Shown: one piece after another, positions 3,126-36,808 of the stretch
Numbering within the stretch: position 1 is the first letter of the stretch
Layout: each line of letters starts with the position of its first letter
The notes under the pieces: generated by a model
The model's database searches: none
Told to the model about the DNA's origin: nothing
The model's input: the letters and a program-made list of their open reading frames with translations, nothing else
Translations under genes and position numbers: made by a program
Assembly (NCBI GenBank): GCA_024137785.1
Contig: JAHRHZ010000217.1
Coordinates: 10,345,601-10,409,600 of the forward strand
DNA length: 64,000 nt
From: Ginglymostoma cirratum
Lineage: Eukaryota
Direction of reading: 5' to 3'

Positions 3126-3756
3126 GACACAGAATATTTGGGGCACCTTCTCACATTCAGCTATCCATTGAACATAATCCACAACGATGAAATATAAGGT
3201 TTGATAAAATAATCCATTTCAAACACAGAGTAACTATAGTGTCGGGACCCACACCCAGTAACTCCAGGAGAGGATTGGAAACAACAGAGAAATACATGAA
3301 GAAACAGGCCCTTCAACATATTGCCTTGTTTCTATCTCTGATGTTCCACTTTATTTTTGAGATATTATAGTTAAAAGAAAACTCCTACTGGACAGGAGAC
3401 CATTCAACCCACTGTACCTGTACTAGCTTTCAAAAGAGCTACCCAGCTCATCCCATTCTCCAGCTGTATCTCCATAGCCTGCTAAATTGATCACTTTCAA
3501 ATACATATATAGCTCGCTTATGAAATCTCATGCAAAATCTCCCTCTACAACTCTCCCAGACTGTGCATTCCAAATCCTAACAACATTCTCCCTAAAGGAG
3601 TTTCTCCTCATCTCTCTCTGAGCTCTCTGGCTGACAGTCTTGAAATTGTGACCCCTAGTTACTGAATTGTCAACTGGTGGAAATGGAATATCCCTCTTTA
3701 CCCTGTCAAAATTTTTCATAATTTTGAACCCCTTAATAAGGTTACCACTTGGTCTT

Positions 3757-3971
3757 GGAGATAAAAAGTACTGCAGATGCTGGAGAATCCGAGATAACAA
3801 GCATGGGGCTGGATGAACACAGCAGGTCAAGCAGCATCATAGGAGCAGGAAAACTTGACGTTTCGGGCCTAAACCCTTCATCAGAAAAAGGGTTTAGGCC
3901 CGAAACGTCAAGTTTTCCTGCTCCTATGATGCTGCTTGACCTGCTGTGTTCATCCAGCCCCATGCTTGTTA
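3757..3971. mobile_element. Palindromic Penelope-like terminal insertion with 16-bp direct repeat (TSD)
   Basis: Perfect 84-bp inverted repeat (3795-3878 / 3888-3971) with 9-nt spacer CATCAGAAA. GTTACCACTTGGTCTT occurs at 3741-3756 and 3968-3983. Confidence 0.9.
3853..3888 (-). ncRNA. Minimal type-I hammerhead ribozyme motif
   Basis: Minus strand reads UUUU-CUGAUGA-A-GGGU-UUAG-GCCC-GAAA-CG-UC-AAGU. Core is intact with a GUC triplet; stem I is weak (2-3 pairs). Confidence 0.65.
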
Positions 3972-4759
3972 CCACTTGGTCTTCTCTGCTTCAGGGAGAA
4001 TAAGCCCTATTTCTCTAATCTTTCCATTTTTCTAAAATCCCTCAATCCTGGTATCATTGCAGTAAATCTCCTTTGCACCCTCCCCAGGGATTTAACATCC
4101 TTTCTGAAATAAAGTGCCCAGAGCTGAACATAACACTCCAAATGTGGTCTGACCAATGATTTGTACAAGTGTAGCATCAATTCTTTGCTTTTATACTCTA
4201 TGCCTCCATTTATAAACCCAAGGATCCTGTAAGGCTTCTGAACAATTGTTTGAAATTGACTGAACCCAGATTCCCTCTGCTCCTGTACTTCCCTTAAATT
4301 TGTACTATTGAGCCTCTATTGTCTCTCCGTGTTTCTTTTACCAAAATGCATTACCTCACTTTTCTCTGTACTGAAATTCATTTGCCAGGTGTTAGCCCAT
4401 ACGGTCAACTTGCTAATGTCCCTCTGAAGTCGCTTAGCACCATTCTTACATTCACTATTCCTTCTAGCTTAGTATCATATACAAATTTAGAGATTTTGCC
4501 TTAAAACCACATCTCTAAATGATTTATATAAATCAGAAAAAGCAAGAGTCCCACACCAATTCCTGGGGAACAATTCTAACTCATTTCCAATCTGTGAAAT
4601 GCCCATCTATATCTACTCTCTGTTTCCTATCTTTTTGTCAACTTCTATTCCATGCTGCTAATGACCCAACAATCCCAAACATTTCTAATTTACTAAACAA
4701 TCTGCAATGTGGCACTGTATCAAATCAAAATAGACTTAATCATCATTCTTCAAAAGGAC

Positions 4760-4960
4760 TAGTGCAAAGTGCTGTGGATGCTGGAAATTTGAAACAAGAA
4801 CAAAAATAAGTGGTAAAACCTTCAACAGTTCAAGCAACAAAAAAACAAGGAAATCAAAAACAAGGTTAAAACAGGGTTAAAGTTTTAACTGGATGACCTT
4901 TGATGAGAACTGGTTTCTGTTTTTCTCCACAGTTGCTGCCTGGCTTGGCTAGTCTAGAAT
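4760..4960. mobile_element. Highly decayed Penelope-like terminal element with partial inversion
   Basis: gtgctgtggatgctggaaatttgaaacaagaacaaaa...gttaaagtttt...gatgacctttgatgagaactgg, followed by inverted ttttctccacagttgctgcctgg. Confidence 0.5.
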
Positions 4961-5680: not shown

Positions 5681-5821
5681 AAAAACCAAAAGAACTGCAG
5701 ATGCTGTAAATCAGGAACAAAAACAAAGTGCTGGAAAAGCTCAGCAGGCCCGGCAGCATCTGTGAAGGAGAAAACAGAGTTAACGTTTTGGGTCCAGTGA
5801 CCCTTCCACAGAAATCAGAAC
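5681..5821 (-). mobile_element. Penelope-like terminal fragment (family A) with 10-bp TSD and mutated hammerhead core
   Basis: TAAATTTAGT at 5671-5680 and 5822-5831. Minus strand reads CTGTGGA-A-GGGTC-actg-GACCC-AAAA-CG-TT-AACT, with two core substitutions. Confidence 0.85.
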
Positions 5822-5914: not shown

Positions 5915-7430
5915 ACCAACCCTTGTATTTAAATGGCACATTTAACATGGTAATACATCCCAAGCTACTTAACAAGGAAGAAATCAACATTTCATTTCTG
6001 TAGCACCATAACAATGAAGGAATGAAGAACGATGACAAAAACCTTATTCAAAGAGTTAAATTTTTAAGAGTTTCTTAGAAGAGGAGAAAGTGAGACTTGC
6101 TGGTTTAGGAAATGAATTCCAGAATCAGATAGCTGAAAGTAAGATCCACAATGATGGAGTAGTTAAAATCAGGAATGTATAAGCAGTCAGAGTCGGATGA
6201 GCCTGGAGATCATGAAGATTTGTCCGTTTGGAGGAGTGTACTGAGATGGGGAGGGTAAGGTCAAGGAGGATTTGGAAAGCAAAGAAAACAATTTTATAAT
6301 TAAGCCATTCTTGGAAAGGATGCCAGTGCAAGTCAGCCAGCATAGGCTTGATAGGTGAATTAAATATTGAACAAGTTAAGATGAAGGCAGCAGAGTTTGG
6401 ATGAGCTTAGGCTGGGCGCAAGCTGGAAGGCCAGCTCATAGAAGTGTAGAATAGTTAAATCTAGGAGCAACAAAATCATGGATGAGGATTTAATCAGCAG
6501 ATGAGTTTAAGGAAGAGTAAGAGTTGACCAATGTTGCAGAGATGAAATTACGCATTCTTGTTAATGAAGGGACTGTAGTGTCTAAACTCAACCTAGAGTC
6601 CACAACCACTGAATGTTTGCTCAACTTCAGATTGTTACCAGACGTGGAAATTAGAAGCAGGGAGCTTGGCTGGGGACCAGAAAAACTGCTTCGGTCCCAT
6701 CCAAGAAAGGATGTCAAACAAACAGTGTGACAAGTATAAGATAGTTGAAGGATCCAAGGAGGCAGTGGTGTGATAGCACTGAGTATCATTGACATAGAAG
6801 TGGAACCTGATGCATTTTCAGACAATATCACTGAGGGGTAGTGTCTCAATGTGAAATACCAGAAATAGATCCTTGGGGAAGTTTACAGTTAACAACATGG
6901 GAATGAAGCCATTGTTTGCAATTCTCTTTTCCTTTTATTCATTCATGGGATGAGGGCATCACTGGCTAGGCCAGCATTTATTGCCCACCCTTAGTTGCCC
7001 AAAAGGCAGTGGTTTTGAAGTCACATGTAGTCGAGACTGCGTAAGAATGGCAATTTCCTTCCCTAAAGGTCATCAGTGAACCAAATTTTTTTTTCCTCTC
7101 CTGACAACAGGCAATGGCTCCATGGTCATCATTAGACCCTTAATTCCAGATTTTTATTGAATTCAAATTCCACTGCCCTCTGTGGCAGGATTTGAACCTG
7201 GGTCCCCAAACCATTCCCTGGGTAATGTTTTGATCATAATACCCCTAGGCCATCACCTCCACTACCAGCTACTGTTTAACAGATAAGAGTGGAACCAAGC
7301 TAGCGTAGTTCCACTCACCTGGATGACCAAGGAAATACATTGGATGAGAAGGATTCTTTGAACTCTATTGAAAGTTGTCAAGTAAGTCGAGAAGGAAAAT
7401 TTTTCAAAATAACAGCCACAGTCACCAATG
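5915..7430 (-). mobile_element. L2 LINE 3' fragment, interrupted by the SINE at 6933-7260
   Basis: Peptide LADLHWHPFQEWLNYKIVFFAFQILLDL matches the L2 LHWLP...FKIL C-terminal motif. L2-type tail near 5915-5970. Confidence 0.75.
6933..7260 (-). mobile_element. tRNA-derived SINE (family B)
   Basis: Reverse-complement match to 7437-7758, including the tail ggcaataaatgctggcctagccagtgatgccc. Confidence 0.85.
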
Positions 7431-7436
7431 AAAGCA

Positions 7437-7758
7437 GAGGAGGTGGTTTAGTGGTATTATCAATAGTATATTAATCCAGAGATACCAAAAATTTCTAGGA
7501 ACCCGGGTTCAAATCCCATCCATGACAAAAGGCAACAAAAATCTGGAAATAAGTGTCTGACGATCATGAAGTCGTTGCTAATTGTTGGAGGAAAATCATA
7601 TTTAGTTCACTAATGTCCGTTAGGGAAGGACACTGGTGTCCTTACCTGGTCTGGCCTACATGTGACTCCAGGTAGCTGCCCTCTGGGCAACTAGGGATAG
7701 GCAATAAATGCTGGCCTGGCCAGTGATACCCATATATTGTGAGTAGATTTTTAAAAAA
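7437..7758 (+). mobile_element. tRNA-derived SINE (family B)
   Basis: A-box-like tggtttagtgg, B-box GGTTCAAATCCC, and a 3' tail shared with the LINE at 9053-9851. Confidence 0.85.
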
Positions 7759-8935: not shown

Positions 8936-9052
8936 TTTTTGTCGTATTCACTCTTGGGATGTTGGCATCACTGGCTGGGTCTGCATTTATTGCCCATTGC
9001 TGATTGGTCTTGAGAAGGCAATAGTTGGTAGGCTGCTTCTTGAACTGTTGCA

Positions 9053-9851
9053 ATGCTGACATGTGGCAAGCAACATTTGCACCACACAAATGCCAGGCAA
9101 TGACCATCACCAATAAGAGACAATCTAACCACCACACCTTGACATTCAATAGTGTTACCATCCCTGAATCCACCACTATTAACATCCTGGGGGTTATCAT
9201 TGACCAGAAGCTCAACTGGACTCACCACGTAAACACAATGGCTATAAGAGCAGGCCAGATGCTAGGAATACTGCGGCAAGTAACTCACCTCCTGACTCCT
9301 CTAAGCCTGTTCGCCATCGACAAAGCACAAGTCAGGAGTGTGATGGAATACTCCACGCTTGCCTGGATGAGTGCAGCCCCAATAATACTCAAGAAGCTTG
9401 ATATCACCCTGGACAAGACAGCCCGCTTGATTAGCACTACATCCATAAGCATTCACTCCTTCCACCACCAACGCTCAGTAGTAGCAGTGTGTACTACCTA
9501 CAAGATGCACTGCAGAAATTCATCAAAGATCCTCAGACAGCACCTTCCAAACCCATAACCACTTCTGTCTAGAAGGATAAGGGCATCAGACATATGGGAA
9601 CACCACCACCTCCAAATTTCCCTCCAAGTCACTAATCATCCTGACTTGGAAATATATTGCCGTTCCTTCACTGTCGCTGGGTCACAATCCTGGAATTCCC
9701 TCCCTAATAGCATTGTGGGTCAAGGCACAGCAGGAGGACTGCAGCGGTTCAAGAAGACAGCTCACCACCATCTTCTCGAGGGCAAATAGAGATGGGGAAG
9801 AAATGTTTGCCAGCCAGTGACACCCACATCCCACAAATGAATAGAAAAAAA
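9053..9851 (+). mobile_element. CR1/L2-group LINE (family C), end of ORF2 plus 3'UTR
   Basis: Open frame WQATFAPHKCQAMTI...ILGVIIDQKLNWTHHV...KAQVRSVMEYS..AW is post-RT LINE sequence. Related copies at 41945, 55955, 44233 and 52445. Confidence 0.9.
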
Positions 9852-9869
9852 TAATCCATTTGGTGTAGA

Positions 9870-10810
9870 TAGATGCAAAATGCTGTTGGAGAGGGAGTTC
9901 CAGGATCTTGACCCAACGATACTGAATAAACAGTGATATTTTCCAGGTAAGGATGGTGAGTAGCTTGGACTGGGACTTAGAGATTATGTTCTTATTATCT
10001 GTTACTCTTATCCTCCTGTATGGTAGTGATCATGGGCTTTAAAGTTGATGTCTCAGGGGAATTGGTGAATTTCAGCTTCTTGTAGACAGTACACACTGCT
10101 GATACTAAATGTTTGTGCAAGTGTTACTGATTAATTGTGTTGCTTATAATTAAATGGTATCAAGCTTCTTGTTTATTGTTGGAGTTACGCTCATTCAGGC
10201 ATTTAAGGAGTATTCCATCACTGTCCTGTCTTGTGCTTTGTAATTGGCAGATAGGCTTTGGGGAGGGAGGTCACAAGGTGAGTTACCTGCAGCTAGACTT
10301 TTAGTCTCTGGCCTGCTCCTGTAGCTAAAGCATTTGGGAATGGATTGGTTCAGTTTCTGAGGATTTATGAATAGCGCTGAACACTGTACAATTATCAGCA
10401 AATATCCCCACTTCTGACCTAATGATGGATGGAAAGTTATTGATAAAGACGCTGTTGATGGTTGGGCGGGGACACTACTCTGAGGAACTCCTGCAGAGTT
10501 GGCCTGGAGCTCAGATGATTAATTTCTAACCATCACAACTATCTTCTCTGTGCCAGGTATGATGCCAATAAAGTTTTTCTCTCCCTGATTCCTATTAACT
10601 GCAGTTTTGCAATAACTCCTAGATGCCACACTCTGTCGGTGCATTCTTGATGTCAAGGACAGTCGCTCTCATCTCACCTTAGCTCTTTTGTCCTCATTTG
10701 GACCAAGGTTATAATGAGATCAGGACCTGAGTAGCCTTGACAGAACTCAAACTGGGCATCTGTGAGCAGATTTTTGCTAGGCAAGTGGTGCCTGATATCA
10801 TTGTTGATGT
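9870..10810 (-). mobile_element. CR1/L2-group LINE (family C), older decayed copy
   Basis: Minus peptide LSANYKAQDRTVMEYSLNA aligns to KAQVRSVMEYSTLA of the adjacent copy. Confidence 0.75.
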
Positions 10811-36437: not shown

Positions 36438-36808
36438 AACATAGTGTAGAGCTGGAGGGTCACTGCAGGTCAGGCAGCTTCAGAGAAGCAGGAAATTTGA
36501 TGTTTTGGGTCAGAATTAAGGATGGGAAGGGTGTTGGGAAATAAATAGAGGGAGGAGGGATGGGGCTGGGGAAAGGTAGGTGCGATGGTGATAGGTGGAT
36601 GCAGATAGGGAGTGGTGGGGATTGGTCGGGTGGGATGGGTGGGGCAGATAGGTGGGAGAGAAGATGGACAGGTTGTGGCAGGTCAAGGAGGTTGGAGAGA
36701 GGATGGGTGGGACTGAGGAAAGGTAGGTGGGGTGCTGATAGGTGGATGCAGGTAGGGGGTGGTGGGGATTGGCTAGTAGGAAGGGTAGGGTGGATAGATG
36801 GGGAAGAA
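36438..36808 (-). mobile_element. Longer Penelope-like 3' fragment with G-rich tandem subrepeats; hammerhead core deleted
   Basis: 36438-36513 matches 3796-3870. The unit gataggtggatgcag.tagggn gtggtggggattgg occurs twice downstream (near 36590 and 36737). Confidence 0.7.

Follow-up and report, generated by a model that had tools for sequence, protein, structure and literature searches.

What kind of event leaves a perfect palindrome, with a hammerhead motif at its apex, inside an old repeat? The question is raised by a short segment of the Ginglymostoma cirratum genome (GCA_024137785.1, contig JAHRHZ010000217.1, forward-strand positions 10,345,601 to 10,409,600), which we analysed as a window of 64,000 nucleotides; positions below are those of the window. 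Two arms of 84 nt (3795–3878 and 3888–3971) are 100% complementary and enclose a 9-nt loop (3879–3887), with the head-to-head junction between 3887 and 3888. They lie in an insert of 211 bp, flanked on the plus strand by a direct 16-mer repeat (3741–3756 and 3968–3983) whose identity stops at both repeat edges. The first 4 nt of the right copy (3968–3971) double as arm sequence, and 38 nt at the left of the insert (3757–3794, the tail) are unpaired. The minus strand is predicted to fold into a single hairpin (−178.9 kcal/mol, z −26.6), and none of 200 shuffled sequences was equally stable. A preliminary description of this DNA had reported the perfect arms, the 16-bp duplication, the 4-nt overlap and the absence of the hammerhead core from the inverted arm, all of which are borne out by the present analysis.

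In the insert, the terminal pLTR of a young Penelope-like element (PLE) is present twice, the copies being joined head to head. The long arm (3757–3887) is on the minus strand, which is the RNA sense, and comprises 131 nt of pLTR and tail, running from start site 1 (3757) to a 5′ hotspot that precedes the hammerhead core by 3 nt. The short inverted arm (3888–3971, plus strand) is a tail-less pLTR copy that starts from site 2 and covers element positions 122 to 39; its 4-nt overlap with the right 16-mer is a microhomology at that start site. Since it begins only past CUGAUG, this half of the core is missing from it. The arms are nested (131/122) and identical in sequence. The tail, on the minus strand of one arm only, spans the interval between the two start sites, a concept taken from PMC11167929 and PMC3846280.

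The insert interrupts the decayed C-terminal region of a non-LTR retroelement ORF2 (approximately 3528–4760, minus strand), which from its protein motifs may be CR1 or CR1-like. A protein-cluster look-up with a 102-residue piece of the host gave a weak match (recognition 2120), to clusters that are unnamed or labelled "reverse transcriptase family". The flanks belong to an old and abundant repeat (3,304 candidates, of which 40 were scored, with identities of 76–84%), and together with the duplication this agrees with the earlier view of a young insertion in an old repeat. A site with one 16-mer outscored a site with two in all 11 plus-orientation paralogues (of 19; the 8 minus-strand loci were left out), and the decayed host reading frame is continuous through a single 16-mer. 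The duplication is thus a true target site duplication (TSD). Contigs from four sequencing runs over 3300–4500 were mostly copies of the PLE family, with none across the insertion among the pieces listed; one contig of run X10 matches 3550–3740 with 9 differences and extends 61 letters further. In a search across sequencing runs, no RNA run was listed as a match and no run contained half of the query words, a result that is uninformative about expression.

Copies of the inserted sequence are very common. The left 131 nt are 99–100% identical to other loci, and a 33-mer of the pLTR has 29,004 exact matches in the genome, against 0 for the reversed control. The native upstream sequence continues in 15,459 of these matches and leads to a 3′ UTR and then to an ORF with a reverse transcriptase (RT), a CX4CX2C linker and a GIY-YIG domain, the order of RT and C-terminal GIY-YIG being seen in translations of partial ORFs. 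RVT_1 scored above the cut-off in L231 (E 1.7e-7), and GIY-YIG fell just under the gathering cut-off in L232 and L105 (E 2.7e-4 and 4.8e-4); look-alike proteins of the parent ORF carry HTH_animal, RVT_1 and GIY-YIG. The linker between RT and endonuclease is present in L081, L083, L087 and L105, and in the last three of these the GIY-YIG domain has CxxC between its GIY and its YIG motif and histidines downstream, matching a CCHH motif. In PMC8557442, CCHH denotes two cysteines between GIY and YIG, and a CX2-5CxxC linker is the Neptune/Nematis motif. By these predicted motifs, the parent is an endonuclease-bearing PLE of the Neptune/Nematis type. At L104, an internal deletion joins an N-terminal piece of the ORF to the 3′ UTR and pLTR. 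In a partial tandem copy, the RNA extends beyond the outer end of the element into the likely start of the ORF, suggesting an internal start of reverse transcription, like that of the anole element (PMC11167929).

At 3854–3887 the minus strand carries a minimal type I hammerhead motif, CUGAUGA-A-helix II-GAAA-CGUC, with CUGAUGA at 3884–3878, C3 at 3884 and a predicted cut between 3857 and 3856. As in the minimal type I PLE hammerheads of PMC4209133, there is an extra nucleotide between 9 and 10.1 (an A following A9), a G10.1-C11.1 pair, a palindrome at the 15/16 positions (15.2–16.2), a short helix I and no helix III; helix II has 4 bp here, compared with 7–8 in that paper. The preliminary description had called the core intact. 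The core nucleotides are indeed all present, but a scan of the window at Rfam gathering scores returned 0 matches to hammerhead families, there is no helix III, and helix I, of 4 bp in the parent, keeps 3 bp here owing to the position of the junction, 3 nt upstream of C3. In fold computations, imposing helices I and II carries a penalty of 9.5 kcal/mol for a native pLTR and 49.8 for the window hairpin, where the motif is buried. Any transcript would give a predicted 84–85 bp of dsRNA that takes about 50 kcal/mol to open, which supports the earlier suggestion that the duplex sequesters the ribozyme; the Dicer, ADAR or cruciform role suggested alongside would be hypothetical. Monomers of minimal PLE hammerheads showed no cleavage (PMC4209133). 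The window ribozyme is predicted to be inactive in the hairpin fold, and the hammerhead is probably a passenger.

The position of the motif has a simple explanation. Of the 33-mer matches, 13,545 diverge from the native sequence within 8 nt (some via mutation or gaps), and inner ends lie at positions 129–134 in 15 of 30 copies picked by the 33-mer alone, a few of the 30 being two arms of one insertion. The hammerhead is therefore at the apex because element copies tend to end 3–5 nt upstream of CUGAUGA. From these DNA ends we infer that the hotspot would correspond to the 5′ end of the RNA, just upstream of CUGAUGA.

The window hairpin has a large number of sisters. A pattern spanning the apex gave 2,201 strand matches, corresponding to about 1,100 hairpin loci or more, and the junction at the window apex recurs at L013, L022, L026 and L062. 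Among the first 30 loci, a set biased to copies ending like the query, 13 had an inverted arm facing the first arm within 900 nt; the inverted layout is also that of L231, a long copy that includes an ORF. Exact TSDs of at least 10 nt flank 33 of 67 gap-free hairpins, with a mode of 15, and the arms are identical over shared positions in 12 of 25 gap-free hairpins. Many sister hairpins retain the whole hammerhead core in both arms, so its loss from one window arm reflects trimming at the junction rather than design. Apices and arm lengths vary between loci, indicating that each hairpin arose at insertion. The combination of inverted pLTR, one-sided tail and TSD is the published layout of PLEs and already known (PMC3846280, PMC8557442). 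The implication that this hairpin is special is not supported: perfect arms are usual in the family, the genome has more than 1,000 such hairpins, and the window copy is a routine insertion, not a unique structure, of a young PLE that is very abundant.

Older relatives are found in the same window. An older hairpin of a related PLE pLTR at 32580–32800 has the same layout, with a tail on one arm only, about 89% identity between arms and an imperfect TSD of 12–14 bp. Older hammerhead-bearing or pLTR-like fragments of related families lie at 2476 (+), 50623 (−), 5688–5814 and 36451–36509, and older inverted repeat pairs with 68–75% identity at 9241–10325, 6954–7731 and 8936–9851. Elsewhere in the genome, two hairpins (L020:1634-1950 and L029:1634-1933, query orientation) have about 300 bp of unrelated DNA between inverted pLTR arms within one TSD, a capture of sequence at the apex. 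At L003 and L009 (G000:C88 and C249), both arms share inverted foreign sequence of 46–98 bp up to a run of 400 N, either a longer palindrome with 5′ transduced DNA or an effect of assembly. At some apices, for example G000:C1:4562751 and C9:1799007, the junction contains short repeats templated by element sequence close by, which resemble the products of polymerase-theta end joining.

The outer ends of the arms proved informative about mechanism. In 30 copies picked by the 33-mer, 17 ended at site 1, 11 at site 2 and 2 elsewhere, the two sites being about 35 nt apart. One arm ending at site 1 faced one ending at site 2 in 56 of 67 gap-free hairpins, drawn like all our hairpin samples with exact-motif patterns and hence not random. 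The other 11 comprise 2 two-tailed hairpins that were fetched deliberately, 3 scored as site 2 twice (two of which become site 1 with site 2 by other end calls) and 6 with one end elsewhere; inverted arms ending off both sites were seen at L019, L022, L027 and L162. The same pairing was found in 11 of 14 gap-containing hairpins with both ends visible. Two-tailed hairpins number 39 genome-wide in all subfamilies; the pattern of a tail opposite the commonest variant's arm gave 679 matches, and 708 hairpins have the commonest variant on both arms. The mean overlap between TSD and arm is 1.6–1.8 nt at both sites, a value that is inflated by the longest-repeat search and carries no weight.

Inner ends were compared in 53 pairs of a site 1 arm with a site 2 arm, from end pairings of 73 arm pairs in which a few loci are counted twice. 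We call a pair crossed when the tailed arm stops short inside and the tail-less arm goes further. The ends agreed within 5 nt in 31 pairs, 10 pairs were nested and 12 were crossed, that is, 12 of the 22 unequal pairs, with one crossed case (L213) doubtful on account of an internal deletion. A short arm copied from a long cDNA would always be nested, so copying of a single cDNA cannot yield the crossed pairs. The arms can also differ in origin: 25 of 896 hairpins, most of them with TSDs, have arms of different subfamily variants, told apart by an indel and two substitutions that all lie within some 45 nt of unique flank. Such discordance is rare (97% of hairpins are concordant, and 282 discordant cases would be expected from independent draws on the pooled family), and across 25 pairs the sharing of variants between arms stood at 5, compared with a mean of 0.35 for shuffled pairs. 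Arms therefore usually come from one RNA or donor, or were homogenised later; the sharing fits same-template copying or gene conversion, and subfamilies active at different times would also lower discordance.

Taken with the in vitro behaviour of a lizard PLE, for which both target strands are cut and extended, two internal start sites are used and a dimer is predicted (PMC11167929), these patterns make priming from both nicks the best reading. The window hairpin is, in our view, a non-coding insertion of two head-to-head pLTR copies within a 16-bp TSD, probably primed from both nicked target strands. The GIY-YIG endonuclease of the element would make cuts in the two strands with an offset of about 15 nt and so leave 3′ overhangs. 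Priming by one target 3′ end would then occur at site 1 and by the other at site 2; in the window, 4 nt of pairing would help, as the bottom-strand end finishes in 4 nt that match site 2. Both cDNAs would be extended toward the RNA 5′ end, just upstream of CUGAUGA, and host end-joining would join their 3′ ends, with small trims or templated fill, to form the apex. Mostly a single RNA or donor locus would supply both arms; in some cases different RNAs would. The geometry agrees with this model, as each arm is cDNA-sense on the strand whose 3′ end is at the far side of the TSD.

The main competing account is a snap-back or self-priming event, in which one cDNA bends back at the apex (AA on UU) and serves as its own template, or an antisense template lets the RNA prime itself, with the endonuclease then trimming the tail. 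Self-priming is the published reading for rotifer Penelope (PMC3846280), and resolution by the endonuclease that for the tail (PMC8557442), which calls the formation of PLE inverted repeats undefined. The concordance of subfamily variants and the private variants common to both arms speak for it, and the window copy, being nested with identical arms, fits snap-back equally well, leaving the argument for priming from both nicks to be made by the sisters. There, the crossed arms in 12 of 22 unequal pairs and the 25 hairpins whose arms differ by an indel and two substitutions count against self-copying, as does the finding that some copies without an inverted arm beside them, L031 and L037 for example, also have site 2 as their outer end. 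The pairing of site 1 with site 2, the crossed arms and the mixed-variant arms thus together argue against simple fold-back copying and for priming from both nicks. As a general account we regard snap-back as unlikely, although it could be the route for a minority of hairpins, the window copy included.

A palindrome may also arise in assembly by fold-back. Exact runs of 400 N, probably assembly gaps, interrupt many sister hairpins, often at the apex and often with duplicated sequence on either side, so assembly errors at sister apices are possible. The window locus, however, contains no N, and its 16-bp TSD restores the host frame; its loop is non-palindromic, its tail one-sided, its junction recurs at other loci, and its layout is shared by the older and diverged hairpin at 32580–32800. 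An artefact is thereby rendered extremely improbable at this locus. Selection for a hairpin RNA (a small-RNA precursor, an ADAR substrate or a ribozyme switch), or spread as a MITE-like hairpin unit, also seems improbable, if less so. The fold is very stable, rotifer Penelope copies yield small RNAs (PMC3846280), and a subset of the roughly 1,100 or more loci could contribute to silencing the family. On the other side, apices and arm lengths vary by locus and nothing points to conservation of the window copy; a unique functional RNA was rejected. A MITE or fold-back DNA transposon has equal terminal inverted repeats and spreads whole as a conserved unit; this candidate was ruled out by the unequal arms and the variable apices of the sisters. 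A non-LTR retrozyme was likewise rejected: it would need at least two units in direct tandem, every one carrying a full hammerhead, and the insert is an inverted pair with one full core.

Like published PLE insertion units (PMC3846280, PMC8557442), the family described here has head-to-head inverted pLTRs, a TSD, a pLTR hammerhead and, in the parent, RT followed by a C-terminal GIY-YIG, as well as a tail on one end only (31–37 bp in those units, about 35 here). Unlike them, the window copy has no ORF between its arms, and the hairpins, at more than 1,000, are numerous enough to test mechanism; the TSD mode of 15 bp compares with 8–10 bp in the rotifer examples. The in vitro system of the PAc Poseidon element of the green anole (PMC11167929) shares the two internal RT start sites bounding the tail, and both strands are cut and extended there with uncleaved RNA as template. 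Its start sites lie inside the ORF, whereas those of the parent described here are about 40–75 nt upstream of the likely ORF start, and Poseidon lacks the CX2-5CxxC linker that this parent carries. That paper supplies most of the ingredients of priming from both nicks, but its available portions do not tie two-strand priming to inverted pLTRs and give the start site as the same on both strands, in contrast to the pairing of site 1 with site 2, which implies coordination. Non-LTR retrozymes (bioRxiv 10.64898/2026.07.22.740005) are likewise short non-coding PLE-derived repeats with a type I hammerhead, but consist of direct tandem units each with its hammerhead, unlike the inverted pair of the window. 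The arms of the window hairpin copy the same interval from two fixed sites. In the L1 twin priming that Ostertag and Kazazian reportedly described in 2001, a second target 3′-OH is said to prime on the element RNA and give an inverted segment within one TSD, but the segments are non-overlapping and the sites variable.

At the level of the family, we lean towards a dimeric enzyme that would prime both nicked strands in a single event, using for each strand a different one of two fixed RNA sites separated by about 35 nt, sometimes on two different RNAs, with the cDNAs fused head to head. Inverted pLTR and one-sided tail would then have a single cause, and the hairpins would overturn the self-priming reading. 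Priming of PLE inverted repeats from two ends was not found in our search of the literature on PLEs and shark PLE hammerheads; the Penelope papers of 2004–2008 and supplements, outside that search, may hold such a model.

The window locus matters little by itself, and the interest lies with the family. The site 1 and site 2 pairing, the crossed arms and the mixed-variant arms are three genomic tests that point to priming from both ends, and they can be checked in the existing in vitro system. If this reading is true, about a thousand hairpins offer a natural readout of the two-strand priming step. With about 1,100 or more near-perfect palindromes of 80–130 bp in the genome, the family might also generate dsRNA and cause gaps in assemblies.
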